DNA of 64,000 bases from Escherichia phage AV112. Position 1 is the first letter of the stretch, and the number at the start of each line of letters is the position of its first letter. The notes under the pieces are model-generated. The model was not told where the DNA came from. It was given only the letters and a program-made list of their open reading frames with translations, and ran no database searches. The stretch lies in sequence record OR352942.1; one strand, given 5' to 3'. A program made the position numbers and the translations under genes. Positions 2,306 through 50,188 of the stretch are shown here, one piece after another.

Positions 2306-2937
2306 TGTTCGCCTCGTAACATGGCACCTAGTGCACCGCCAGGGTGGAACTTAAGGAAGTCATTAGAGGTAAATCCACGTTCAGACGAAAGGTTGATAGC
2401 AAACGTATCGATAAGCGCTAACAACAATGTAGTGGACATGGTCGGAGCCAGAGAATTCTCATCAACCTCTACTGCGATGCCTGTACAGAACGTATAATCA
2501 AAAAGAGCTTCGTATTCTTGTGGAATGTCCGGGTTACAATGCAACAGAATCTGTTTGACGTTCGGACGAATCATTTTAAGATGCTTAGCCACGCCTATCA
2601 TTTCTTCAGTTTTACCAGAACGACTAATATGAATCAACACATCATTAGGCGCAATGAATCCTGCATCACCGTGAGAATAATGTCCAGTGTTCAAGTACAT
2701 ACTCGGGATACCGAGTGAAGCAAATGTCTCAGAAGCTTTAGTTGCAATATTAGCATTCTTACCAACACCTGTAATAATTACTCGGCTTTCATAATTACTA
2801 AGTCCAGGACGTCGAAGAGTTTCTAGAATAGCATTATAACGAGCAGGGTTTTGACTAATTACTTTGGCCATAGCGGCCAAAGAAGAAGCTTGTTTTATGA
2901 TTGCGTCAATAGCGATAGTAATAGGAGTAGTTTTCAT
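2302..2937 (-). CDS. SIS-domain sugar-phosphate isomerase (arabinose-5-phosphate isomerase KdsD/GutQ-like)
   Basis: Contains the SIS signature HISRSGKTEE and the overall SIS-domain pattern; it sits directly downstream of gene 43, where T4 carries imm, 42 and beta-gt. Confidence 0.6.
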   Translation of the reverse strand: MKTTPITIAIDAIIKQASSLAAMAKVISQNPARYNAILETLRRPGLSNYESRVIITGVGKNANIATKASETFASLGIPSMYLNTGHYSHGDAGFIAPNDVLIHISRSGKTEEMIGVAKHLKMIRPNVKQILLHCNPDIPQEYEALFDYTFCTGIAVEVDENSLAPTMSTTLLLALIDTFAINLSSERGFTSNDFLKFHPGGALGAMLRGEQ

Positions 2938-2977
2938 ATTTCTCTCATTTAATTAGTTTGCCGTCCATGTCATTATA

Positions 2978-5689
2978 TCAAAAATCGAACATATCGAACA
3001 GAGATGCTTTCTTCTCGTAATCGAGTTTCGCTGCTGATGTGAATCCTTCAAGTGGTTTAATAAATGTCTTCTCAAGGAGAACAGTGTAGTCCATCCAATG
3101 AAGTACGTCGTCTTTAATTAAATCTGTGATTTCAGTACCAGAAGGCCATGCGATACATTTATCACCGAATGGGTTTCCTTCACGTAAAGGCAGAACATAT
3201 ACTTTTTCACCTTCTACAACTTGTGGTGCATCGATATTACCTTTGATAGCACGGTTATACGTCAGAATTCCACGAATATGGAATGGGCATTTAGGACCAG
3301 GGAATCCACCTACATCATATTTAGCAATGTTATTCGCAGAAGATACTGACGCGATGCTAATATAATTCAATTGACGGAATTCTTTTTCAAACTCTTTAAA
3401 ATATTCTTGTAATGATTCTTCGCCTTCCTGAAGCATACGACGAATACATTCTTTAAGAGCTTTCTGTACTGCTTTAGGAGTCGAAGATTTCTGAGTCTCT
3501 AGACCCATGATTTTGAGTTTAGGCTCAGCGTATCTGGTTCCTTCCATATCCCACACGTTTAATGCATAACGTTTCTTACCAGTCCAGAATCCACCAATAC
3601 CTTTAGAACCGAGTGGAGGCCCAGCGATAGCTTCTCGGTCCATGAACATTAAGTGTTGTTTATTGTTCATGTATTCACACATTTCACGGAAACCTCTATC
3701 AATAGCTGGTTCCATACGTTCACGTGCAAACTTATCTAAGAAGTCTACCCAATGGTTGGTATCACGGAATTTAGATTCACCAACCTTATCGATAATTTTA
3801 TCAGCAGATACGTAAATAGAGTCTGTATCACCATAAAGAACGAAAGCTTCACCTTCTGTGCCACAAACTTCATTCAGATATTCATTAACTTTACGTTCAA
3901 TCCACTGTAAAGCCATTTGCCCGAATGTTGTGATTGCAGTAGCATTACGCAAATCGTAATAACGGAACCAAACGTTGCCAAGTGCACCATAAAGTGAGTT
4001 GATAAGCAATTTACGGTTAATTTGGGCAGTCATACCTGCAACTTCAGTACGTTGAGCTCTAAACAACATTTCATTAAGAGATTTAGCAGACAACTTTTTA
4101 ATCTTTTCTTTAATCTCATCACTGAAGTCGAAACGATAATCAACATCTAATGGTTCGTCAACAGAAAGATTAGGATTATGCAATGCCTCTTTAATTATTT
4201 CACCATTACGTTGAGCTGCAAGCATGTAACCTTTATGTTCTTTACGTTGATTAAAGACCTTAGTGATTTCAGTTGGAACAACACCGTCACGGTCTTTATA
4301 ATACATCATGCCGTTAGGAGAACAACTGTACACATCAGAAGGACGTTCAGCAACAGCGTTAATATAATCATGTAATGGAGCTACTTTAAACGTTCCTGCT
4401 ATTGTTTCTGGGCTAATATTCACTTGGCGAATAATACTTGGATACAGAGATGTAAGGTCGAAACTCATTACATATTTGTATCGATTTGGAATAGGTTCCT
4501 TAACAAAAGCGCCGGGATAAGGTTGAACCGGATGAGAACGACCTTGTGGAATCACCTTGTTCTGCTCTTTAAGGCTATTAAAAATAATAGCATCCCATGT
4601 TTTAATTGGGCTAAACACAGATTGAATCTGTATCTTAGCATAATAACCCATGTCCAAACTCAAGTTGATGAACTGACGTTTAGCATCAATTTGCAATACA
4701 CGATACACGTCGATAATGTTATAAGAAATATATCGTTGGTGATTGCTTTCACGAAGCTTAGAAATAGGGCCGTCATATTTCAGTTTACCAACGTTCAATT
4801 CAAATTCTGAAATGTAATCCAGAGAATACGACGGTTGATTGGTAAAAGAGAATTTTTTGTAAAGGTCAATGTAATCAAGAACAGAGATACCGAACAATGT
4901 AATGATTTCACGAGAACCATACATGTTTTCGATAACTTTAACACGAGTTTTACGATGTGGTGATAAACGTTTCGCAGTAGATTCGCCAAAAATATTCTTG
5001 ATTCGGTTATACACATATGGAATATCAAATGACTCAACGTTCCATCCAGTCAAAATGACAGGAGTTTTCTGTTGCCAGAAGTTGAGATATTCCATCAACA
5101 ATTCTTTTTCGTTATCGAACGGCATATAAATGATTTTATCGATAATTTCGGATGGGACTTCATCACCGCCTTGTTCTTGAAGCTTAGCCGCAATTTCGAT
5201 AGACCATTCTTCCACATTCCCGTATGGAGAATTCAAAAGGTCAAATACGTAGAACCTGTCGTCAATTGAGTCATAATGAGTGATAGCATCAATCGGATGT
5301 TTTGCTTGTGACGGCTCAGGGAACCCGTCTGGAGATGTTACTTCGATGTCGAAGTTAGCCACACGAATTTTTGTATGGTCGTATTTGATTTCATAGTTAT
5401 AAGTGTCAGACAAATACGCCAATTTGAAATCGTCCATGCCAAGTGCTTCAAGTCCGATATCTTCCATGCGTTTAATCCATTGGGAGGCATCACGCATATT
5501 GGCGAACAACTTACGAGTACACGGCTTACCGTAGATATCGAAATATTTCGTAGCCTGACTTTCCGGACAATGAGCAAACAGTGATGGTTTATATTCTACT
5601 TCACGAGTACGTTCACGGCCGTTAGAATCGATGTAACGTTCAAAAATTGAATCACCAATCTGTTCAACCGTTAAGTAAAATTCTTTCAT
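2978..5689 (-). CDS. 43: DNA polymerase gp43 (family B)
   Basis: 903 aa, starting MKEFYLTVEQIGDSIFERYIDSNGRERTREVEYKPSLFAH; collinear with recalled T4/RB69 gp43, with exonuclease and polymerase motifs such as YGDTDS. Confidence 0.97.
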   Translation of the reverse strand: MKEFYLTVEQIGDSIFERYIDSNGRERTREVEYKPSLFAHCPESQATKYFDIYGKPCTRKLFANMRDASQWIKRMEDIGLEALGMDDFKLAYLSDTYNYEIKYDHTKIRVANFDIEVTSPDGFPEPSQAKHPIDAITHYDSIDDRFYVFDLLNSPYGNVEEWSIEIAAKLQEQGGDEVPSEIIDKIIYMPFDNEKELLMEYLNFWQQKTPVILTGWNVESFDIPYVYNRIKNIFGESTAKRLSPHRKTRVKVIENMYGSREIITLFGISVLDYIDLYKKFSFTNQPSYSLDYISEFELNVGKLKYDGPISKLRESNHQRYISYNIIDVYRVLQIDAKRQFINLSLDMGYYAKIQIQSVFSPIKTWDAIIFNSLKEQNKVIPQGRSHPVQPYPGAFVKEPIPNRYKYVMSFDLTSLYPSIIRQVNISPETIAGTFKVAPLHDYINAVAERPSDVYSCSPNGMMYYKDRDGVVPTEITKVFNQRKEHKGYMLAAQRNGEIIKEALHNPNLSVDEPLDVDYRFDFSDEIKEKIKKLSAKSLNEMLFRAQRTEVAGMTAQINRKLLINSLYGALGNVWFRYYDLRNATAITTFGQMALQWIERKVNEYLNEVCGTEGEAFVLYGDTDSIYVSADKIIDKVGESKFRDTNHWVDFLDKFARERMEPAIDRGFREMCEYMNNKQHLMFMDREAIAGPPLGSKGIGGFWTGKKRYALNVWDMEGTRYAEPKLKIMGLETQKSSTPKAVQKALKECIRRMLQEGEESLQEYFKEFEKEFRQLNYISIASVSSANNIAKYDVGGFPGPKCPFHIRGILTYNRAIKGNIDAPQVVEGEKVYVLPLREGNPFGDKCIAWPSGTEITDLIKDDVLHWMDYTVLLEKTFIKPLEGFTSAAKLDYEKKASLFDMFDF

Positions 5690-10835: not shown

Positions 10836-11697
10836 TTAAATTTTTCCTCATGAATTCAGAAACTAAAGCCTGTAAAGAACTTTGTATAGGATATCCTAAA
10901 TTGACTAAATTTTTAGAAAAAGTCACATATTTAGGTTTGTTCATTTTAACCCATTCATCGTAAAGCATATCAAAATTTTCCCAATGATATCCTTTTCTTC
11001 TAGATTTCAAATGAGTGTCTCTAACTTTAGGATTTTTCCAACTGCGTGAAACTCCAGCCGATAATGATTCTCTATATTCGGCTGTTTTAGATATTTTACG
11101 ACAAGCATCCAAATGTTTTTGTTTATTAATAGGGTCACTAAACCACTTTTGGGTCATAATAGAGACGGTTTCTTTAAATTCCTTTGAACTTGTCATAATT
11201 CTGTGTTTCTTTAAATTTTCCGGATTTTTAAACCATGCTTTTAAAGCTTGACTAATCTTAATTCTATTATCCTGATTGGAATAGTATAATGTCATTTTTA
11301 TAGAATTAACTTTACAAACATTTTCGAATTCTAAAGAATACGCCTCGGCTATATTATTTAGTTCATGCGTTGTACAATTTAAATTAAATCGCCCGGTATA
11401 CATTCTTTGAAGCGCGTTAATCATCTTGTGGTTGCCAGTTTTTGCCAAAATGCTATGTGCAATAAAATGGTTATAATGACTTAAATGACACAAGTTCCAT
11501 TTACATGTTTTAAAATCTGGAAAAATAGATTTTGGTAGTATATGGTGAACCTGAGTCAGTCCTTTTACTTTATTAGTTGAATTAGTTTTTATAAAGTTTA
11601 AATACTCATCAAGTCCTTCCCACGAAGGGAAGGAGGTTTTAAGAATTTTATAAATTTGAGTTTCATAATCAGTCTTCGTCATTATACGCGTCCTCAA
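10822..11697 (-). CDS. HNH homing endonuclease (free-standing, Mob-like) with NUMOD-type DNA-binding repeats
   Basis: HNH core QVHHILPKS...CKWNLCHLSHYNHFIAH, followed by repeated WFKNPE / WFSDP / WKNPK helix motifs. It is inserted between 46 and 47 and overlaps the gp46 start by 14 nt. Confidence 0.8.
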   Translation of the reverse strand: MRTRIMTKTDYETQIYKILKTSFPSWEGLDEYLNFIKTNSTNKVKGLTQVHHILPKSIFPDFKTCKWNLCHLSHYNHFIAHSILAKTGNHKMINALQRMYTGRFNLNCTTHELNNIAEAYSLEFENVCKVNSIKMTLYYSNQDNRIKISQALKAWFKNPENLKKHRIMTSSKEFKETVSIMTQKWFSDPINKQKHLDACRKISKTAEYRESLSAGVSRSWKNPKVRDTHLKSRRKGYHWENFDMLYDEWVKMNKPKYVTFSKNLVNLGYPIQSSLQALVSEFMRKNLSENI

Positions 11698-11926
11698 TAC
11701 ACGCTTCAGCCATTTTAAGAATAGAGCCAGGAGTATCGTTGTCCATTATATTAAAGCTAAATTCAACAGCCCAGTCGGTGCAGACATGAACTGCTTTAAC
11801 TTCATTACCTTCAACGCGTAATGGCTCAATCCAATACTTGATAGTGTTCTCGAATCCATCATCATCTTTAACGTCCATTTCAACTTCAAGCCTGAGTCCA
11901 GCATTGTTAAATTCATCTAAAGTCAT
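11669..11926 (-). CDS. Hypothetical acidic protein
   Basis: 85 aa ORF between gene 47 and the HNH gene. Confidence 0.45.
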   Translation of the reverse strand: MTLDEFNNAGLRLEVEMDVKDDDGFENTIKYWIEPLRVEGNEVKAVHVCTDWAVEFSFNIMDNDTPGSILKMAEACIEDAYNDED

Positions 11927-12942
11927 TGTGTTGCCTCAATATAAAGTTCGTTGGAATATTTGACCAGCGCTTCTCTGTCTTCGTCTGAGATATCTGGAAT
12001 CGCGTCAATATATTCTTTAATGATATCTTGAAGAGATTTAATCTCGATTTCCTGGTCGTCATCAGATTCAACACTGTTATCAACTTTAGAAACCATACGA
12101 AGAGAGTGAACTACTTTTTCAAGTTCAGATTCAAACTTAGTCAACTCTGAATCAATTTCTGATACTATAACACGTACGGCTAGATTAGTATAATCAGAAT
12201 AATTGATTTTGCCTTTAAACGGATAAGTGATTCGTCGATGCCATGTTGTTTCGTTAGGAATAAATTCCATACGTTCAACATCAGTGTCAAATACCCAAAA
12301 TCCGCGCGGGTCGTTCTCATCACCTGCAGTAAGGGTCCATGGTGTCCCAATATATTTGACGTTAGCAGCTTCAGAGATTGTGTGGAAGTGGCCGGACCAG
12401 ACTTGTTTATAGGTCTTTAAGAAATCAGGTTCAAGCCCATGAGACTTCATTCCTTTATAGAAATAAAAACCATTCAGTTCCCAGTGCCCAACACAATACG
12501 CTGCGGAAGAAGTCTTGATGTGCTCTAAGATTTCACCTGTATTTTCTTCGCACATCCATGGAACGATATCAATCAGACATCCGTCAAAATCTACAGTAGT
12601 TGGATGCTCGTAAATAGTAAAGTTTTCAAATTGAGTTAACAATTCAGAAACAGTGTTAGGTGTTATTGTATTCTTAAACGCCATGTCATGGTTTCCTATC
12701 GTGACATGAACGTGAATGCCTGCTTTAGAAATCATATCAACGATTTCACGATTGAATTCCATTGTACGATGTGTTATTGCTTTACGGACGTCAAACCAAT
12801 CACCGTACTGAATCCAAGTTTTAATCCCATGTTTCTTAGAGTATTCAATTGCTTGACGAATACCATCACGTTGAATATCTTGAACCCATGGGTCGTCTTG
12901 TTTGACTCCGATATGGAAGTCGCCTAAGTGCAAAATTTTCAT
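11923..12942 (-). CDS. 47: Recombination endonuclease subunit gp47 (SbcD/Mre11-like)
   Basis: 339 aa; MKILHLGDFH...GNHD phosphoesterase motifs; collinear with recalled T4 gp47. Confidence 0.94.
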   Translation of the reverse strand: MKILHLGDFHIGVKQDDPWVQDIQRDGIRQAIEYSKKHGIKTWIQYGDWFDVRKAITHRTMEFNREIVDMISKAGIHVHVTIGNHDMAFKNTITPNTVSELLTQFENFTIYEHPTTVDFDGCLIDIVPWMCEENTGEILEHIKTSSAAYCVGHWELNGFYFYKGMKSHGLEPDFLKTYKQVWSGHFHTISEAANVKYIGTPWTLTAGDENDPRGFWVFDTDVERMEFIPNETTWHRRITYPFKGKINYSDYTNLAVRVIVSEIDSELTKFESELEKVVHSLRMVSKVDNSVESDDDQEIEIKSLQDIIKEYIDAIPDISDEDREALVKYSNELYIEATQ

Positions 12943-14025: not shown

Positions 14026-14488
14026 AATGCGTCATTTTATCGTAGATGTCTTGAATAAACGTTTCATCTACCAACGCTACCATATCATCGTCATGACTGT
14101 CGTAGACGTTATGAACGAAGTAACTATATTTCTTTGCAACTTCCTTACGTTCTTTTTTGATACGTTGGACAAAAGCATTAAAACAAGCTCGAGTTATGTA
14201 TGCATGTGGGTTATTGTACTTAGTTTCGTCGAAATTATGAAGTCCCTTAATAGAGGCTTCAATCCCATCTGCAATCATCTCCTGCTTCCAAGACTGGGTA
14301 TATCCTGAAAAGTTGAAACGTTTGGACAGGCCTTCGGCGATAAGCATAATTGCTAAACCGATGGTATCATTCTGACGAATAATTTTGTTTGGGTCTTTAT
14401 TATTTAAGAGCTCCTTTTTCCACTCGATTATAGCGGCGAGAAGCTCTTTATTATTCACATAGTTATTTTTAGGTTTTTGTTCAGTCAT
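13931..14488 (-). CDS. 55: Late-transcription sigma factor gp55
   Basis: 185 aa; near-identical to recalled T4 gp55 over NYVNNKELL...[25 protein letters not shown]. Confidence 0.94.
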
Positions 14489-14643
14489 AAGTACCTCTTA
14501 GCTCAATTCATAGGTCTATTATATCATAATATTTAGAGACCTATCTTAAAGCACGAGATACTACCAAAGATACGTAACTTTCATAAAGTTGTCGACTTAA
14601 AATTCACCAAACTTTTATTCGGTTATAGTAATTCGAGATAGTT

Positions 14644-14871
14644 TCATTCTATTTCCTTTGCTGCAAATAAGGCAGCATCCAACGAATCAAATTGGTCAAC
14701 GAAATCAATATTCAATGCATCGTCATCCGTAGCATATAACCACCATTGTTTGAATTCGTATTCTAGAATAAATCCAGGACCTTCAATCTGAGGAAGACCT
14801 AGACTATTTGTACTAACTTCATAACCAGCTAGACGCAGGTCATTAATCAAAGTTTCTGTTAATACGTTCAT
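14644..14871 (-). CDS. Hypothetical protein
   Basis: 75 aa ORF upstream of gene 55 (T4 55.x region). Confidence 0.45.
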   Translation of the reverse strand: MNVLTETLINDLRLAGYEVSTNSLGLPQIEGPGFILEYEFKQWWLYATDDDALNIDFVDQFDSLDAALFAAKEIE

Positions 14872-15200
14872 TTTACCGCCTTAACAATTTTCAGGTCAAC
14901 GAATTTTTTCTTACGTTGATTTTTCATACGACGGATAGTCTTTTCAGAGATTTCATGTTTCTGATAAGCTTTAGATTCAACACCAAATGCAGCAACGTCA
15001 AATTCAGAAAGAATATATTGTACTAGAATTTCACGAATAGAATTACGTCCAATTTTCTGGTCGTGTTTTTGCATGATTTCATAAAGACGGAATTCCCACG
15101 CGTCAAGAACTTGAGGAGTAACAATATTGCCGGATTCAAGAAGAGCAACAACTTTATCGAAAGCGAAAGAATTAACTACGTTTTTGATTTTAGTAGACAT
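14868..15200 (-). CDS. Hypothetical protein
   Basis: Start placed at MSTKIKNVV, preceded by GAGGAAAATAAT-ATG; the longer ORF-track start would place the ATG inside the -10 element of the promoter repeat. Confidence 0.5.
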   Translation of the reverse strand: MSTKIKNVVNSFAFDKVVALLESGNIVTPQVLDAWEFRLYEIMQKHDQKIGRNSIREILVQYILSEFDVAAFGVESKAYQKHEISEKTIRRMKNQRKKKFVDLKIVKAVK

Positions 15201-37274: not shown

Positions 37275-37577
37275 TTATTTACCTTTAATTACTTTAGCTG
37301 CTTCGATAGCCGCTTGCTGAAGGTCATCCATCGACATACCGAATTTAGAAGCAAAGTTATCAATTTTCTTTTCGACAGCATTCAAAGGCTTGGCCTGTTT
37401 ACCTTCATTAGCGCCAGGAAGAGCGAGAATACGCTCTTTGTCAATATAAAGGCTTACAAGTTTCTTACGGTCTTTATCGGACAAATCATGAAATGAATGG
37501 GCCTTTTTATTTATAGCGGCTTCTAATTTACCTGCACTCACTCGCGCTTCAGTAATAAATTCTTGATATGTTTTCAT
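37275..37577 (-). CDS. Internal protein (IP) with capsid-targeting sequence; ipII position
   Basis: Starts MKTYQEFITEA, matching the T4 internal-protein capsid-targeting consensus MKTYQEFIAE; 100 aa as for T4 IPII. Confidence 0.65.
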   Translation of the reverse strand: MKTYQEFITEARVSAGKLEAAINKKAHSFHDLSDKDRKKLVSLYIDKERILALPGANEGKQAKPLNAVEKKIDNFASKFGMSMDDLQQAAIEAAKVIKGK

Positions 37578-37618
37578 ATGTTTCCTTTAAATGTAAATAG
37601 GCCTAAATATAGGCCTTA

Positions 37619-38197
37619 TTAATTACCACGGGCTGCATTAGCAACGGCGTAAGCGTACTGAACATTAGCGTCTTTAAACGTACCTTTAGAGGTATCTAGT
37701 TCTGCCTTAAAGCCACCTTTAGCCATAACATCGGCAAATTCTTTACGGAAGGCCATTGCATCAAGACCTTTCCATGATGATTTGTGCTTGGCGAATTCAA
37801 GACCAGCGTAGTTGACAGCCTTAGCTAATTTATTATCAATGACCCATTTACCGGCTTTAGGCACAAACACCGGGCCTTTCTGTTTAGAGAATAGTTTTAA
37901 ATTCCAGCGACGAAGATCACTGTCGGCTTTAACAAAAGCTGCGTCTAAGTTACTAGCAACAACATCTTGAATATGGCCAAATTTAAGCCCATCAACTTCA
38001 ATATTTAAATCGGTACGCCAGCGAAGTCCTTCCCAAGCGAAGGCTTTAAAATCAGAAGCTTTTGTGGCTAGATATCGTTCAAGTGGAGCAGTTTTAGGGT
38101 CAAAGCCGTTACCGCCACGATAAGTCCACTCGTCCTTATTAATGCCTTGAGCTTTTCCTGCAAAGGCCTCGGCGATAAATTCTTTATATGTTTTCAT
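37619..38197 (-). CDS. Internal protein (IP) with capsid-targeting sequence; ipIII position
   Basis: Starts MKTYKEFIAEA; 192 aa. Confidence 0.65.
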   Translation of the reverse strand: MKTYKEFIAEAFAGKAQGINKDEWTYRGGNGFDPKTAPLERYLATKASDFKAFAWEGLRWRTDLNIEVDGLKFGHIQDVVASNLDAAFVKADSDLRRWNLKLFSKQKGPVFVPKAGKWVIDNKLAKAVNYAGLEFAKHKSSWKGLDAMAFRKEFADVMAKGGFKAELDTSKGTFKDANVQYAYAVANAARGN

Positions 38198-38260
38198 TTT
38201 TGTTTCCTTGTTTGTTTTGATAGAGTAATTATACCATATTAATACTTAAGCGTAAACTGT

Positions 38261-38521
38261 TTAAGCTTTACCGCCGGAAATAATTCCGAAGTTGTTAAAA
38301 TCGTATCCAATATCGTCAACATCTACTTTAGGACTTGTAGCAACATAAGCAATTTCACTACGTTTTGCATAGGTGTTGATTTCTTTACCATCGCCACCTA
38401 AGAAAAAATACCCATTACGTTTTAATGAGCCAAAGTCTTCCGCATCACCAATGAAAGCTTTAACTTTAAATTTAGGACCTTTGGCATCTGCTTCAGCGAT
38501 AAATTCTTGATACATTTTCAT
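38261..38521 (-). CDS. Internal-protein-like small protein
   Basis: Starts MKMYQEFIAEA. Confidence 0.55.
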   Translation of the reverse strand: MKMYQEFIAEADAKGPKFKVKAFIGDAEDFGSLKRNGYFFLGGDGKEINTYAKRSEIAYVATSPKVDVDDIGYDFNNFGIISGGKA

Positions 38522-38527
38522 TTTTCC

Positions 38528-38941
38528 TTAGTAAATTGATTTACCATAGTATTTGTACCAAGTAGGACGTTGAGCAATTTTTTCATCTAAGCGTGCTTGA
38601 CTTATCGCAATGGACGCTTCGGACGGGACATAATTATTACGAAATTCGGCAGGGATGTCGGAAATATCCTGGACAGTCGTGTCCTTGATTTTGAAACCAC
38701 GTTTCAAGCATTCAGCGATTAGCTCGATTTGTCGTAAACGTAAAAATTCGAGTTTGTCGTAAAAGAATGTTACGTGGCCGGTGCCTAAGATAAATGTTGG
38801 AGAGATTTTAAAATCCTTTACACGTTTACCATTTTGAACATGTTTACGGACTGCACCGAATACACGAGGTAATTCACGATACTCAGCCATAAGATGTTGG
38901 TCGGTCAGTTCAGAAACAAGTGTTAAATTGATACGGGTCAT
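38528..38941 (-). CDS. denV: Endonuclease V (pyrimidine-dimer DNA glycosylase)
   Basis: Start trimmed to [12 protein letters not shown]; near-identical to recalled T4 DenV across its length. Confidence 0.93.
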
Positions 38942-38968
38942 AATTTCCTCCAAGTAGTTGATGAATGT

Positions 38969-38998
38969 ATAGTATCAAAACCCTTGGAGGAAGTAAAC
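38969..38998 (-). promoter_or_regulatory. Sigma70-type early promoter upstream of denV
   Basis: Minus strand reads GTTTAC, an 18-nt spacer, then TACTAT. Confidence 0.5.
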
Positions 38999-38999
38999 A

Positions 39000-39281
39000 C
39001 TATTTTTCTGAAGCGCCTGAAATATATTTTTCAAGACGTTGTTTCATCAGCGAGCCGTTCTTAGCGATTTCTTCCGGTTTATCGCACATACGCAACAAGG
39101 CTTCAAGCTTAACGATATCACTGGTGCGTTCAAATTTGCGAGTATCTATCTTACTAGCAAGTTCAGAAATACGTGCTAATAGACTTTCGGCTTCAACCAA
39201 AGCTGCACCTAGCTTAGTTGCAAATGTGTCAGTAGCTTCGTTAAGAATAGATTCTGATAAAAATTCACTATATGTTTTCAT
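39000..39281 (-). CDS. Internal-protein-like protein
   Basis: Start at [10 protein letters not shown]; its ATG overlaps the stop codon of gene e (ATGA). Confidence 0.55.
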
Positions 39282-39766
39282 ATATACGCTTTCCAAGTTC
39301 CTGTTTTAAATGTTGAGATTACGCGTTTCGCGCGATTAGGTGTCTGACGATACCATTTAGATTGGGCTAGATTTACTGCCGCTTCGTCCCAACGTTTCTG
39401 TTGAAGCATACGAAGAGAATTAGTAAAACCGGCGACGCCTGCTACACCCATTTGGAAGACCATATTGACCAGTGCACATCGACGAACCGCATCTAAAGAA
39501 TCGTATACCGGTTTAAGTTTAGCATTACCCAAGATTCCGCGAACGGCTTTATCAACGTCTTCATTAAATAACTTTTCAGCCTCATCAAGGGTAATTGTAC
39601 CGTTGCATTTACGTCCGATCATTCTGTCAAGTTCAGCTTTAGCTACGGTTAAAGACGGGTTCTTTGTTACTAAATGACCTATGCCAATCGTCCAAAAGCC
39701 TTCAGTGTCTTTGTATAAAGTCAGTCTAAGACCTTCGTCATTACGAAGCATTTCAAATATATTCAT
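39278..39766 (-). CDS. e: Endolysin (T4 lysozyme)
   Basis: Start trimmed to [15 protein letters not shown], preceded by GGGAGGTATT-ATG; near-identical to recalled T4 lysozyme. Confidence 0.95.
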
Positions 39767-46834: not shown

Positions 46835-47299
46835 TTATTTAATTTGTTTAGCAGACCAGATACGGTCTTTAATAAGTTTTTGGATATCTTCAACATACTC
46901 AAGGCTATGAGCGTGAGGATTATCTTTGAAGCTATGTGCTCGTGCCAGTTTCTGGCCTTCTGTTTTGATTACTAAAAGCTCTTTAAGAATTGCTTCATAC
47001 TTAGAAATAATTCCTTTGGCGATATTTTTTTCTTGAGCGGCTTTAGGGTCCGCTTTTGGCGCAGGTGCTTTACCTGTAGCTTTCTGGAACAATTCACCTG
47101 ATGCAGCTAGGCTTTTAAAAACTCGGCTAACAGTATTAGCATTAGTAAAACCTTCGGCTTTAAAATCTCTAATAAAACGGAAACGTTCTTCATCAGAGGC
47201 GTCTTTGTAAGAATATTTACCTGCTCTAATTGCTGCAATCGCAGCGGCTTTTACATCTGAACTAGATTGTTCAGTCAAAAATTCAGCGTATGATTTCAT
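46835..47299 (-). CDS. Internal-protein-like protein with capsid-targeting sequence
   Basis: Starts MKSYAEFLTEQ. Confidence 0.5.
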   Translation of the reverse strand: MKSYAEFLTEQSSSDVKAAAIAAIRAGKYSYKDASDEERFRFIRDFKAEGFTNANTVSRVFKSLAASGELFQKATGKAPAPKADPKAAQEKNIAKGIISKYEAILKELLVIKTEGQKLARAHSFKDNPHAHSLEYVEDIQKLIKDRIWSAKQIK

Positions 47300-47343
47300 G
47301 TTGCTTTTCCTAAGTTAATTAACTTATCTATTTATTATTATGC

Positions 47344-47371
47344 AAAAAAGCCCCAACCTTTCGGAAGGGGC
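47344..47371 (-). terminator. Rho-independent terminator closing the tRNA/stable-RNA transcription unit
   Basis: Plus strand reads aaaaaa-GCCCCAACC-tttc-GGAAGGGGC. Confidence 0.6.
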
Positions 47372-47423
47372 TATGCCTTGCGGCAACCTTGTCGGGGTTC
47401 CACCTGCTAAGGCAAGTGTTTGT

Positions 47424-47683: not shown

Positions 47684-47759
47684 TGGTCGAGACAGTAGGG
47701 GTCGAACCTACGACCTAGGACTTAGAAGGTCCTTGCTCTTCCTTCTGAGCTATGCCTCG
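47684..47759 (-). tRNA. tRNA-Arg (anticodon TCT)
   Basis: Manual cloverleaf: acceptor CGAGGCA/TGTCTCG, D-arm GCTC-AGAAGGAA-GAGC, anticodon loop CTTCTAA, T-arm GTAGG-TTCGACC-CCTAC, encoded CCA. Confidence 0.85.
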
Positions 47760-47763
47760 GATT

Positions 47764-47838
47764 TGGCGGACATGCATGGATTCGAACCATGGACCAATTG
47801 ATTAACAGTCAACTGCTCTACCACTGAGCTACACATCC
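47764..47838 (-). tRNA. tRNA-Asn (anticodon GTT)
   Basis: Manual cloverleaf: acceptor GGATGTG/CATGTCC, anticodon loop CTGTTAA, T-loop TTCGAAT, encoded CCA. Confidence 0.8.
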
Positions 47839-47842
47839 AAAT

Positions 47843-47929
47843 TGGTTGGGAGTGATGGAGTCGAACCACCTGAGTCGCAATGACAATGGATTTACAGTCC
47901 ACACCGCTACCTCTACGGGATAACTCCCC
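47843..47929 (-). tRNA. tRNA-Tyr (anticodon GTA), long variable arm
   Basis: Anticodon arm GTGGA-CTGTAAA-TCCAT, long variable arm, T-arm GGTGG-TTCGACT-CCATC, encoded CCA; the 5' acceptor boundary is uncertain by 1 nt (a 1:72 mismatch if the start is 47929). Confidence 0.6.
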
Positions 47930-47938
47930 AAATTAATT

Positions 47939-48013
47939 TGGTGGCCCTGGGTGGAATTGAACCACCATCTGGCGATTATGAGTCGCTTGCTTGAACCTTC
48001 CAGCTACAGGGCC
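47939..48013 (-). tRNA. tRNA with CAT anticodon (Ile-lysidine type as in T4, or Met)
   Basis: Acceptor GGCCCTG/CAGGGCC, anticodon loop CTCATAA, T-arm GGTGG-TTCAATT-CCACC, encoded CCA. Confidence 0.8.
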
Positions 48014-48014
48014 T

Positions 48015-48090
48015 TGGTGCTGATTGACGGAATTGAACCACCGACCTTCTCATTACAAGTGAGTTGCTCTACCTACTGAGCTAAATCAGC
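48015..48090 (-). tRNA. tRNA-Thr (anticodon TGT)
   Basis: Acceptor GCTGATT/AATCAGC, D-arm GCTC-AGTAGGTA-GAGC, anticodon loop CTTGTAA, encoded CCA. Confidence 0.85.
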
Positions 48091-48095
48091 AAAAC

Positions 48096-48185
48096 TGGCG
48101 GAGGCGATAGGATTTGAACCTATGAGTCGCCGGAGCGACTGCCGGTTTTCAAGACCGGTGCATTAAACCACTCTGCCACGCCTCC
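48096..48185 (-). tRNA. tRNA-Ser (anticodon TGA), type II
   Basis: Acceptor GGAGGCG/CGCCTCC, anticodon arm CCGGT-CTTGAAA-ACCGG, long variable arm, T-loop TTCAAAT, encoded CCA. Confidence 0.85.
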
Positions 48186-48187
48186 AG

Positions 48188-48261
48188 TCTCCATACAAGG
48201 ATTTGAACCTTGGACCTCCTGATCCCAAATCAGGCGCTCTACCAAACTGAGCTACACGGAG
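48188..48261 (-). tRNA. tRNA-Pro (anticodon TGG)
   Basis: Acceptor CTCCGTG/TATGGAG (C1:G72), anticodon loop TTTGGGA, T-loop TTCAAAT; CCA is not encoded. Confidence 0.8.
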
Positions 48262-48271
48262 TAAATTAAAT

Positions 48272-48345
<74 letters not shown>

Positions 48346-48350
48346 AAATT

Positions 48351-48437
48351 TGGTGCGAGAAGTGGGACTCGAACCCACAAGGAAATCATTCCGCAGCATT
48401 TTAAGTGCTGTGCCTTTACCAATTTGACCATTCTCGC
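48351..48437 (-). tRNA. tRNA-Leu (anticodon TAA), type II
   Basis: Acceptor GCGAGAA/TTCTCGC, anticodon arm CAGCA-CTTAAAA-TGCTG, long variable arm, T-arm GTGGG-TTCGAGT-CCCAC, encoded CCA. Confidence 0.85.
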
Positions 48438-48438
48438 G

Positions 48439-48511
48439 CTGGGAATAAAGGACTCGAACCTTTGCATCCTGGAATCAAAATCCAGTGCCTTACCAACTTG
48501 GCTAATTCCCA
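48439..48511 (-). tRNA. tRNA-Gln (anticodon TTG)
   Basis: Acceptor TGGGAAT/ATTCCCA (U1:A72, typical of Gln), anticodon loop TTTTGAT, T-loop TTCGAGT; CCA is not encoded; only 1 nt separates it from tRNA-Leu. Confidence 0.85.
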
Positions 48512-49466: not shown

Positions 49467-49524
49467 TTTATTCTCCTCTGTAGTTGATAGGGTAATAGTA
49501 TCACTACCCCATCTAAAAGTAAAC

Positions 49525-49797
49525 TCATTTTAAATAAATTGCGTATTTTTTATAGCCACCAGGCTCGTGTCGAAGACCCTTATCATTAGCAAAACGCTCA
49601 ATGTTGTTAATTTGATTCTGGTCAAGTTCAGAGATGTCAAACACGAAATAGTTACGTTTGTTACCAACTGTTACATAGTCAGTTAAATCAATACCATATA
49701 GGTAATTGATGTCAGCAATCATAGTCTTGACAGCTTTGCTAATTTTTACTTTTTCGTTAAAAGTAGCTTCATTGATAAATTCTTTAAATGTTTTCAT
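49525..49797 (-). CDS. Internal-protein-like protein with capsid-targeting sequence
   Basis: Starts MKTFKEFINEA. Confidence 0.55.
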   Translation of the reverse strand: MKTFKEFINEATFNEKVKISKAVKTMIADINYLYGIDLTDYVTVGNKRNYFVFDISELDQNQINNIERFANDKGLRHEPGGYKKYAIYLK

Positions 49798-49828
49798 TTT
49801 ATTTTCTTAATTAATTTTGATAGGACCT

Positions 49829-49858
49829 ACTATAACATAGTCCTATCAACATGTAAAC
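49829..49858 (-). promoter_or_regulatory. Sigma70-type early promoter with palindromic -10 region
   Basis: Minus strand reads GTTTAC, an 18-nt spacer, then TATAGT, within TAGGACTA/TAGGTCCTA. Confidence 0.5.
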
Positions 49859-49860
49859 TA

Positions 49861-50124
49861 TTAAATACCTGCTTCGCGCTTAACATAAGCAACATAAGCT
49901 TCGATAGCTTTCTTGCTGGTAATTTTTACCTGACCGCGTCCGTTGCCTTCTTTAGAGTTTTTCTTAACAACTACATTACCATCTTTAACACCCCATACAT
50001 GGACATAAGTACCGATGTTTCGGTCGTAGAACATTGCATGGTCGTTGTTGTAAGAGAATGATTCGTAGTTCTCTGTCAGAGTAGAAGATTGAGATTCAGC
50101 GATAAATTCTTTATACGTTTTCAT
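49861..50124 (-). CDS. Internal protein, ipI position
   Basis: Starts MKTYKEFIAES; adjacent to 57B as in T4. Confidence 0.6.
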   Translation of the reverse strand: MKTYKEFIAESQSSTLTENYESFSYNNDHAMFYDRNIGTYVHVWGVKDGNVVVKKNSKEGNGRGQVKITSKKAIEAYVAYVKREAGI

Positions 50125-50158
50125 TTTATTTCCTTGAGGTCGTTTATTTGATAGGATG

Positions 50159-50188
50159 ATAGTAACACACCATCATCCTTATGTAAAC
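50159..50188 (-). promoter_or_regulatory. Sigma70-type early promoter
   Basis: Minus strand reads GTTTAC, an 18-nt spacer, then TACTAT, within the palindrome AGGATGATGG/CCATCATCCT. Confidence 0.5.

Follow-up and report, generated by a model that had tools for sequence, protein, structure and literature searches.

Seven genes with a T4-type capsid-targeting leader and unrelated payloads in an RB69-like phage

Introduction

Next to the lysozyme gene e and denV of this phage lie four genes whose first codons specify a peptide like the capsid-targeting sequence (CTS) of the T4 internal proteins. This raises the question of whether their products are packaged and injected with the DNA and, if so, what they do in the next host. 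The initial annotation had extended the observation to seven ORFs in the window, by which we mean the whole stretch of DNA that was analysed (64,000 nucleotides). It had read them as an expanded set of T4-type internal-protein genes, the extra ones being diverged copies and plausible injected counter-defence effectors. Here we examine the leaders, the payloads behind them and the genomic setting of these genes. The source phage (AV113 in the GenBank comparison) is an RB69-like Mosigvirus.

Results

Seven ORFs begin with the capsid-targeting motif

Inspection of all ORFs in the 64-kb window gave exactly seven, each on the minus strand, that start with MK[TSM][YF]xEF[IL]xE (Table 1). All seven ORFs that had been listed as carrying the T4 CTS consensus, at 37275, 37619, 38261, 39000, 46835, 49525 and 49861, are thus present, and these positions are the low (stop-codon) ends of the genes. 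A six-frame scan of the window gave no other instance of the peptide motif, and relaxing the motif brought in no additional ORF. At the DNA level, the back-translated pattern ATGAARWSNTWYNNNGARTTY had six matches, every one at the start of a CTS ORF, against a mean of 0.01 in 100 dinucleotide-preserving shuffles, none of which (0/100) reached six. The seventh CTS ORF, the 38261 gene, begins with MKMYQEF and is not covered by this pattern. Its start is set two codons downstream (MYQEF...) in the GenBank record of AV113, which masks the motif; the RefSeq record of RB69 has the upstream ATG. A looser DNA pattern had no match in the 104 kb of the AV113 genome outside the window, so that seven is the genome total of CTS ORFs.

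Codons 3, 4, 8 and 10 of the leader vary synonymously (ACA/ACG, TAT/TAC, ATT/ATC, TTA/TTG, GAA/GAG), a pattern that points to selection on the peptide, with conservation at the amino-acid level. As a comparison, an amber-suppressor analysis (Mullaney and Black, 1996, as summarised in PMC9026906) showed that targeting depends on CTS residues 4 and 7 and processing by gp21 on residues 8 and 10. Position 4 is Y or F and position 7 is F in all seven leaders, which lie at the extreme N-terminus, and the gp21 site (I/L)-x-Glu is likewise complete in 7/7, with I/L at 8 and E at 10. The residue that follows the predicted cut is A in four proteins, S in two and Q in one. A second LxE occurs in the leaders of the 39000 and 49861 proteins, at residues 15 and 18, respectively. 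In T4, the 10-residue leader alone packages GFP, nuclease and other proteins (PMC9026906). The matching head machinery is encoded by AV113 outside the window, namely gp21 (Peptidase_S77, E = 2.5e-107), the gp22 scaffold (T4_CASP, 1.5e-89) and GP67 (4.5e-22). Among the seven mature proteins, four have a basic pI (9.2–9.7) and two a near-neutral one (6.3–6.4), the latter unlike the basic classical internal proteins. The literature that we searched contained no virion proteome of a Mosigvirus.

Table 1. Positions of the CTS genes and of neighbouring elements in the window.
Feature	Position	Strand	Description
ipII ortholog	37275..37577	-	100 aa, leader MKTYQEFITE then A, mature ~9.8 kDa, pI 9.7
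Hairpin between ipIII and ipII	37599..37616	-	AGGCCTATATTTAGGCCT, 7-bp stem
ipIII ortholog	37619..38197	-	192 aa, leader MKTYKEFIAE then A, mature ~20 kDa, pI 9.6
Early promoter before ipIII, without stem-loop	38228..38257	-	TTTACG-17-TATAAT, 10/12, TG present; no predicted structure
CTS gene directly downstream of denV	38261..38521	-	86 aa, leader MKMYQEFIAE then A, mature 8.2 kDa, pI 6.4
CTS gene, ATG overlapping stop of lysozyme gene e (ATGA)	39000..39281	-	93 aa from motif-bearing ATG
CTS gene just past tRNA/stable-RNA block	46835..47299	-	154 aa, leader MKSYAEFLTE then Q, mature 16 kDa, pI 9.7
Terminator-like hairpin and T-run (47344-47372)	47323..47372	-	Just upstream of 46835 gene; read from sequence
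Third promoter/stem-loop, closing ipI-locus array, before trna.4 homolog	49485..49524	-	GTTTAC...TACTAT, weaker stem, z = -1.5
Ip9, second gene of ipI locus	49525..49797	-	90 aa, leader MKTFKEFINE then A, mature 9.3 kDa
Early promoter with stem-loop (PeSL-type), before Ip9	49816..49858	-	TTTACA-17-TATAGT, 10/12 and extended TG; 11-bp stem, z = -4.0
CTS gene at T4 ipI position, directly downstream of 57B	49861..50124	-	87 aa, leader MKTYKEFIAE, then SQSSTLTE, then N
Early promoter with stem-loop between -35 and -10 (PeSL-type), before 49861 gene	50147..50188	-	GTTTAC...TACTAT, 11-bp stem, z = -3.6

The payloads behind the leader are unrelated

No similarity was detected among the payloads of the seven proteins. 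The extra genes are thus not diverged copies, as had been proposed; what they share is the leader, and the proteins that follow it are unrelated. The set can be called expanded only relative to T4: the corresponding region of RB69 also contains seven CTS ORFs, a single locus of phi25-307 contains six, and seven is a normal number of CTS genes for this genus. AV113 and RB69 share only two of their seven payload families, and approximately 13 families occur among four phages. The polymorphic Ip4–Ip10+ genes of T-even phages (for example Ip9 of RB15, Ip5 and Ip7) follow the same principle, with a common CTS and unrelated payloads at a hypervariable locus. Polymorphic ip genes of T-even phages were reportedly described by Repoila et al. 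in 1994, the year in which Ip9 is said to have been named.

Five of the seven proteins fall in PHROGs named internal virion or internal head protein. Scans of all seven against Pfam and NCBIfam gave nothing above threshold, and a PDB sequence search with the 46835, 49525 and 49861 proteins gave no match. Homology to characterised type IV inhibitors (Ip1, Ip2, Ip3 and Bas37_0260) was found for the IPII and IPIII orthologs and for none of the five non-T4 payloads. Because the characterised inhibitors are not homologous to one another, missing homology does not exclude inhibitor function. Bas37_0260, from phage KarlGJung, is similar to the AV113 genes in that it has the leader MKTYQEFIAE, is 77 aa long and lies in a two-gene ipI locus, but its payload is related to none of those in AV113, which has no homolog of this McrBC inhibitor.

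The e/denV locus contains IPII and IPIII orthologs

Four of the genes are near e/denV and two in the interval from 57B to trna.4, sites that T4 and RB69 also use, and one follows the tRNA block. At the first of these loci the order in AV113 is e, CTS gene, denV, CTS gene, ipIII and ipII, whereas in T4 it is e, ipIII, ipII and denV. The IPII and IPIII orthologs of AV113 share with those of T4 the leader, the e/denV neighbourhood and the upstream sequences. The 37275–37577 protein is 93% identical to T4 IPII, with homology along the full length of the payload, and is in phrog_7857 ('internal virion protein', E = 4.5e-55); the sequence upstream of its ATG, ...TATTTACATTTAAAGGAAACAT-ATG, is identical to that of T4 ipII. 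The 37619–38197 protein is 90% identical to T4 IPIII, also with full-length payload homology, and is in phrog_5341 (E = 2.6e-117). The IPII ortholog of AV113 probably acts on ECOR21-type (BrxU) GmrSD and the IPIII ortholog on ECOR17-type GmrSD.

The other two genes at this locus have payloads known from RB69. That of the 38261–38521 gene belongs to the RB69 gp125 family (phrog_2667), which is present in 217 phage records, and is 93% identical to RB69p125, an 'internal head protein'. The 39000–39281 protein has a leader in which the first 10 residues are followed by SILNE and then A, giving two candidate cut points, and is in phrog_3499 ('internal head protein', E = 1.2e-46). Its payload is 100% identical to that of RB69p127, the leader of which differs (MKTYMNFYQNLSLNE). 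The protein is 48% identical to the products of genes annotated ip5 and 47% identical to Bas37_0261, and by these comparisons it is placed in a distant Ip5-like family.

Two other cassettes occupy the ipI locus

T4 and RB69 have IPI between 57B and trna.4. RB69 keeps a near-T4 IPI there, whereas AV113 carries two other cassettes, and none of its seven proteins has homology to the IPI payload. The 49861–50124 gene has a rare payload (phrog_13302, 'unknown function'; seen in 35 phage records only and forming a single protein cluster) and is 'hypothetical' or unannotated in every record inspected, with no ip name. In BLASTP against IPI, its leader aligns along the entire 19-aa T4 IPI leader, ending in ST(L/I)TE. 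We considered the gene as a diverged IPI and rejected this, since the alignment is of the 19-residue leader alone and the payloads are dissimilar.

The second gene, 49525–49797, encodes a protein with 87% identity over 100% of its length to UniProt Q38376, 'Ip9' of phage RB15. It is in phrog_7673 ('internal head protein'), and phage VR25 has a homologue that is annotated ip9. Modelled with AF2 (pLDDT 78, pTM 0.65), Ip9 has a small alpha/beta domain. PDB matches of the model were generic alpha/beta folds and not significant (best E = 0.07, TM below 0.5), and those in BFVD were uncharacterised viral proteins only. In a Kagunavirus, a sigma-70 promoter is followed first by the gene for a homolog that lacks the CTS, a position consistent with a payload that is required at the onset of infection. 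An Ip9-like segment was also seen in two large proteins, one a repeat protein and the other without a confident domain.

A further CTS gene follows the tRNA block

The 46835–47299 protein belongs to a family (phrog_2280, 'unknown function') found in 511 phage records; the homologues in 14 sampled records are all 'hypothetical protein' or unannotated, with no ip name. The leader is kept across this family, for example as MKSYAQFLNEVVLNE in Tequatrovirus, and RB69 and Bas37 also have CTS ORFs after the tRNA block. The AF2 model (pLDDT 76) is all-helical, with a Lys/Ala/Pro linker connecting two helical domains, and had no match in the PDB by Foldseek (best E = 0.34, TM at most 0.30). IPI* was absent from the PDB fold matches of both modelled proteins, this one and Ip9. 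In both models the leader is disordered, which fits a propeptide. Upstream of the gene, after the hairpin listed in Table 1, AATAAATA (47329–47336) matches the T4 late-promoter box at 7/8 positions. From their sequence, these elements may serve as a terminator and a late promoter.

Promoter and leader form a shared block

[quoted passage not shown] Such promoter/stem-loop cassettes were reportedly described by Arbiol et al. in 2010. The AV113 arrangement differs from them in that the shared block reaches into the CTS codons and in that the ipIII promoter has no stem-loop. The homology between AV113, RB69, JK36 and T4 spans promoter, RBS and CTS codons and ends right after the CTS. The promoter/stem-loop of the 49861 gene is nearly identical in RB69, where it is ahead of another payload, and the element at 49485..49524 aligns with its T4 equivalent. 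The 38261, 39000 and 37275 genes have no promoter of their own. A canonical T4 late promoter (TATAAATA) was found directly upstream of none of the seven genes. This is not discriminating because the ip genes of T4 show the same, and the promoter architecture as a whole matches that of the T4 ip genes.

Discussion

We consider the products of the seven genes likely to be T4-type internal proteins that are packaged by means of the CTS, cleaved by gp21, injected, and for the most part used to block type IV restriction. The leader positions, the gp21 and scaffold genes and the IPII and IPIII orthology bear out the earlier reading of them as internal-protein genes whose products are plausible injected counter-defence effectors. 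That proteins of this type block type IV restriction agrees with published work: Ip1, Ip2 and Ip3 are specific inhibitors, each of one distinct GmrSD variant (PMC12373910), IPI* is an inhibitor of GmrSD(CT596), and Bas37_0260, a CTS protein from the ipI locus, inhibits McrBC (bioRxiv 10.1101/2025.11.20.689424). RB69-type DNA, which contains arabinosyl-hmC, is cut by GmrSD enzymes. For the five non-T4 payloads, packaging, cleavage and an anti-defence role are what we infer by analogy. The four CTS proteins characterised so far are all from Tequatroviruses with glucosyl-hmC, and the targets in phages with ara-hmC could differ.

In the mechanism that we propose, each protein would consist of an N-terminal CTS of approximately 10 residues and an unrelated payload of 8–20 kDa. 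As the prohead assembles, the CTS would attach to the scaffold core of gp22, gp67 and gp68, and the protein would thereby be enclosed in the head; gp21 would then cut after (I/L)-x-Glu at 8–10, with the 39000 and 49861 proteins perhaps cut at the second LxE further on. The freed payload would stay among the packaged DNA and be ejected with the genome into the next host, and therefore be there before any phage gene is expressed. Once there, it would most likely bind and block a specific host nuclease that attacks DNA with sugar-modified hydroxymethylcytosine, namely a type IV enzyme such as GmrSD or McrBC, and transcription from the early promoters would top up the injected dose. Cassettes made up of promoter (with or without stem-loop), RBS, CTS codons and payload may be swapped by recombination at three hot spots, and close relatives would therefore carry different payload sets. 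Dar of phage P1 is likewise packaged in the head, injected and protects incoming DNA from restriction, but the proteins are unrelated, have other packaging dependencies and act mainly on type I systems.

It is conceivable, though we think it the lesser prospect, that the payloads are injected effectors with targets other than type IV restriction, such as other defences, competing phages (superinfection and exclusion) or host takeover. Payloads unrelated to the known GmrSD or McrBC inhibitors would fit such a role, as would the mutual exclusion between RB69 and other T-even phages. Siphoviruses in which hmC DNA is not expected also encode the Ip9 payload, whose target therefore need not be a modification-dependent nuclease. 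By contrast, all four characterised CTS proteins act on type IV enzymes, and this analysis gave no positive evidence for another target.

A mainly structural or physical role for packaged proteins, in neutralising DNA charge, in aiding condensation or ejection, or as minor parts of the scaffold, seems unlikely to us. The classical internal proteins are abundant, at approximately 1000 copies per head, are rich in lysine and make contact with the phosphates of the DNA, and the basic pI of four of the seven mature proteins is in keeping with this. However, such a role has no need of some 13 unrelated and rapidly exchanged payload families, two of the AV113 payloads are near-neutral, and every internal protein that has been examined functionally (Ip1, Ip2, Ip3 and Bas37_0260) is a specific restriction inhibitor. 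In addition, IPIII without the CTS rescues infection from the host cytoplasm. Least probable of all, we think, is that some leaders are by-products of cassette recombination or of efficient translation initiation on early cytoplasmic proteins that are not packaged: the conserved block does run from the promoter through the RBS to nucleotide 30 of the gene, the promoters are early with no late ones, the Ip9 payload works without a leader in other phages, and RB69 ORF123c (Ala for Glu at position 10) and RB69 p127 (I/L-x-E at 8–10 lost) show that leaders can decay, but the leader residues are kept despite synonymous variation of their codons, the four functional positions are intact in 7/7, distant homologs of the 46835 protein and Ip9 (32–79% payload identity) retain a CTS-like leader, and the peptide MKTYQEFIAE alone suffices for packaging in T4 (PMC9026906).

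Within our preferred reading of the seven as injected internal proteins, we tentatively raise a further idea, for which we would not claim even odds. The 46835 and 49861 families, and possibly Ip9, could be injected inhibitors of defence systems that have not yet been tied to internal proteins, such as nucleases that act on ara-hmC or systems other than restriction. In siphoviruses the Ip9 payload is also found leaderless, as the first early gene, and it might be an anti-defence domain of general use to which T-even phages added the CTS, so turning it from 'expressed first' into 'delivered pre-made'.

Both the polymorphism of CTS payloads and their role against type IV restriction are already in the literature, and the idea put forward in the initial annotation is the established view. 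Current understanding is not altered: knowledge of the polymorphism dates from 1994, and work from 2007 to 2025 showed that Ips act against type IV enzymes. What the window adds is of practical rather than conceptual use, namely seven candidates, two of which had been left 'hypothetical' in databases and one of which had a mis-set start codon. AV113 has swapped out IPI, and the 46835 gene indicates a third variable ip locus. Because the CTS is a ready sequence label for T-even proteins that are delivered with the DNA, listing CTS ORFs efficiently nominates first-response anti-defence proteins. Since Mosigviruses have arabinosyl-hmC DNA and the characterised Ips are from phages with glucosyl-hmC, the five uncharacterised payloads are reasonable probes for nucleases that attack ara-hmC DNA.

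Shared leader of the seven genes

The initial annotation held that seven ORFs open with the capsid-targeting sequence (CTS) of T4 internal proteins (Ips), and this was borne out. All seven are minus-strand ORFs that open with MK[TSM][YF]xEF[IL]xE; they are referred to here by their low (stop-codon) ends. A degenerate DNA pattern of the CTS had six matches in the window versus 0.01 expected from shuffled sequences, and this pattern does not cover the seventh ORF, 38261, which begins with MKM. No further match to the peptide motif was found in any frame of the window, and looser versions of the motif added none. Escherichia phage AV113 (OR352943.1), an RB69-like phage of the genus Mosigvirus (Tevenvirinae), is 100% identical to AV112 across the window, whose position 1 corresponds to position 96000 of the AV113 record. 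The other 104 kb of the AV113 genome contained no additional match, so the window holds the complete CTS set of the phage. Codons 3, 4, 8, and 10 of the leaders have synonymous differences among the seven genes, so conservation acts on the leader peptide and not just on the DNA.

Internal-protein genes in the window and their closest assignments
Gene	Position	Strand	Length (aa)	Assignment
37275	37275-37577	-	100	IPII ortholog; T4 IPII 93% identical
37619	37619-38197	-	192	IPIII ortholog; T4 IPIII 90% identical
38261	38261-38521	-	86	RB69 gp125 family; RB69 gp125 "internal head protein" 93% identical
39000	39000-39281	-	93	RB69 gp127 family; payload is that of RB69 gp127 "internal head protein"; ~48% to genes annotated ip5
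46835	46835-47299	-	154	PHROG, function not assigned; family in 511 phage records
49525	49525-49797	-	90	Ip9; phage RB15 Ip9 87% identical; annotated ip9 in other records
49861	49861-50124	-	87	PHROG, function not assigned; family in 35 phage records

The AV113 GenBank entry starts 38261 at the second ATG (MYQEF...), which drops the MK and masks the CTS register. In RefSeq RB69 the gene starts at the upstream ATG, as it does in several homologs, among them Ip9 of Citrobacter phage Moon (MKMYQEFITE). The start codon of this gene is mis-set in the AV113 annotation.

A tag made of only residues 1-10 of IPIII is enough to load foreign proteins into the T4 head, and amber-suppressor analysis identified residues 4 and 7 as targeting determinants and residues 8 and 10 as processing determinants (work by L. 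W. Black, reviewed in PMC9026906). Y/F4, F7, I/L8, and E10 are kept in all seven AV113 leaders, and the AV113 genome codes for the gp21 prohead protease, the gp22 scaffold, and gp67. In 39000 and 49861 a second LxE shortly follows the first. In 39000 this is LNE at residue 15, and its retention in RB69 gp127, where the leader is otherwise diverged, points to the predicted cleavage at LNE as the conserved event in this family. The leader of 49861 aligns with the whole 19-residue leader of T4 IPI and shares the ending ST(L/I)TE.

RB69 gp127 (positions 2923-3204 of the RB69 locus) and window 39000-39296 encode payloads, the part of the protein beyond the leader, that are 100% identical over 81 residues. 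The two leaders differ; that of RB69 gp127 is MKTYMNFYQNLSLNE, and Y4, F7, and LNE alone are retained. This difference suggests that the leader contains a recombination breakpoint or has changed rapidly.

Unrelated payloads

The extra genes had been described as highly diverged copies, and this description does not hold. Outside the leader, no similarity was detectable among the seven payloads or between any of them and T4 IPI; they are different proteins behind a shared tag. No Pfam or NCBIfam family was found for any of the seven, and a search with three of the non-T4 payloads, those of 46835, Ip9 (49525), and 49861, returned no solved relatives. In the 46835 family, all 14 records sampled (of 511) read "hypothetical protein" or are unannotated, and functional annotation was present in 0 of 14 sampled records (of 35) for 49861.

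The AlphaFold2 model of 46835 (pLDDT 76) consists of two helical domains with a Lys/Ala/Pro-rich linker between them, and no fold neighbour was found for it. Ip9 was modelled as a small alpha/beta domain (pLDDT 78, pTM 0.65) with no significant PDB neighbour and with BFVD matches to uncharacterised viral proteins only. In both models the leader is of low confidence and separate from the folded domain, as would be expected for a propeptide.

Leaderless homologs of mature Ip9 occur in non-T4-like phages: Kagunavirus (51% identity), ECP2304, and Salmonella phage SilasIsHot. The 72-residue homolog in Kagunavirus vB_EcoS_UTEC10 (PP291582.1, positions 2504-2722 of the locus) starts where mature Ip9 would start and is the first gene after a sigma-70-type promoter (TTGCAC-17-TACTAT). 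This position fits a payload required at the outset of infection, which T-even phages supply pre-made. Among metagenomic relatives of Ip9, some have a CTS-like leader and others have none. An Ip9-like domain also seems to be embedded in two far larger proteins of viral or metagenomic origin, P0040 (861 aa) and BFVD UPI0018AFBB59 (535 aa; TM 0.76 to Ip9), and no informative partner domains were found in either.

The "Ip7" of Escherichia phage OLB35 (P0017) looks chimeric, with an N-terminal part similar to RB69 gp156 (57% over 44 aa) and a final stretch of 35 residues that matches the C-terminus of Ip9 at 86% identity. It has no CTS as annotated.

Expression signals

None of the seven genes has a TATAAATA late promoter immediately upstream; strong early-type promoters instead precede ipIII, 49525, and 49861. 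The T4 ip genes likewise have no late promoter directly before them, so this arrangement is a family trait and is no argument against packaging. Three genes lack their own promoter. Of these, 38261 comes after denV with no promoter between, and the ATG of 39000 (39278-39281) overlaps the TGA stop of the lysozyme gene e (ATGA), which suggests that 39000 is translationally coupled to e. Upstream of 46835 are a hairpin and T-run ending the tRNA/stable-RNA block, followed by a AATAAATA box.

The window minus strand has seven TATAAATA boxes in total, including a perfect T4 late-promoter box within the ipII coding sequence (37508-37515, minus strand). The tRNA/stable-RNA block has ten tRNA genes (Arg, Asn, Tyr, Met, Thr, Ser, Pro, Gly, Leu, Gln; 47684-48511, minus strand) and then ~300 nt, probably corresponding to the T4 rnaC/rnaD stable RNAs, that end in the hairpin and T-run (47344-47372).

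Cassettes and variable loci

We aligned the 57B-trna.4 interval of AV113, JK36, T4, and RB69. Homology spans the promoter, RBS, and CTS codons and ends directly after the CTS. In AV113, each of the two promoters at this locus has a significant stem-loop in its -35/-10 spacer (z = -3.6 and -4.0), matching the PeSL elements proposed as mediators of modular shuffling in T4-type phages (PMC2839356); the ipIII promoter has no such stem-loop. AV113 has no IPI homolog, and its ipI slot is occupied by two other cassettes, 49861 and 49525. By contrast, RB69, of the same genus, retains an IPI 94% identical to that of T4 and a different second gene (positions 14450-15110 of the RB69 locus).

A third variable ip locus lies just after the tRNA/stable-RNA block. 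AV113 carries 46835 there, RB69 the unrelated CTS ORF 149c (11551-11991), and Bas37 both types (locus positions 3029-4191, Bas37_0243/0244), whereas T4 has no CTS gene at this site. Rapid payload turnover would follow from the cassette organisation: across AV113, RB69, T4, and Bas37 we counted ~13 unrelated payload families.

The set was also claimed to be expanded, which is correct relative to T4 only. The corresponding region of RB69 also carries seven CTS ORFs (six matching the motif, plus gp127), with only two payload families in common with AV113, and phi25-307 has six in the e/denV locus alone, AV113's four and RB69's two. Seven is therefore usual for the genus.

Relation to known internal proteins

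T-even internal proteins are very diverse defence proteins in which the CTS is the sole shared part (Repoila et al., 1994, cited in Rao and Black, PMC3012670), and at least 10 Ips have been reported from related phages by signal sequence (Silas et al., 2025, PMC12373910). Ip1, Ip2, and Ip3 block one GmrSD type IV enzyme each, a different one in every case, and do not cross-protect (Silas et al., 2025), and IPIII without its CTS is active from the host cytoplasm (Srikant et al., 2022, PMC9391042). RB69-type DNA, which bears arabinosyl-hmC, is a substrate of GmrSD enzymes (PMC6024577). Bas37_0260, a CTS protein of the ipI locus, inhibits McrBC (2025 preprint, 10.1101/2025.11.20.689424); its gene was found in phage KarlGJung, and it has no relationship to any AV113 payload.

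The proposal that the seven are T4-type internal proteins and plausible injected counter-defence effectors agrees with this established model. Both the phenomenon and its functional principle had been published before, as had most of the gene families, and GenBank already holds the genome. To these our analysis makes modest additions: two CTS families unannotated in databases, a third ip locus, the mis-set 38261 start codon, and relatives of Ip9 that have no CTS.
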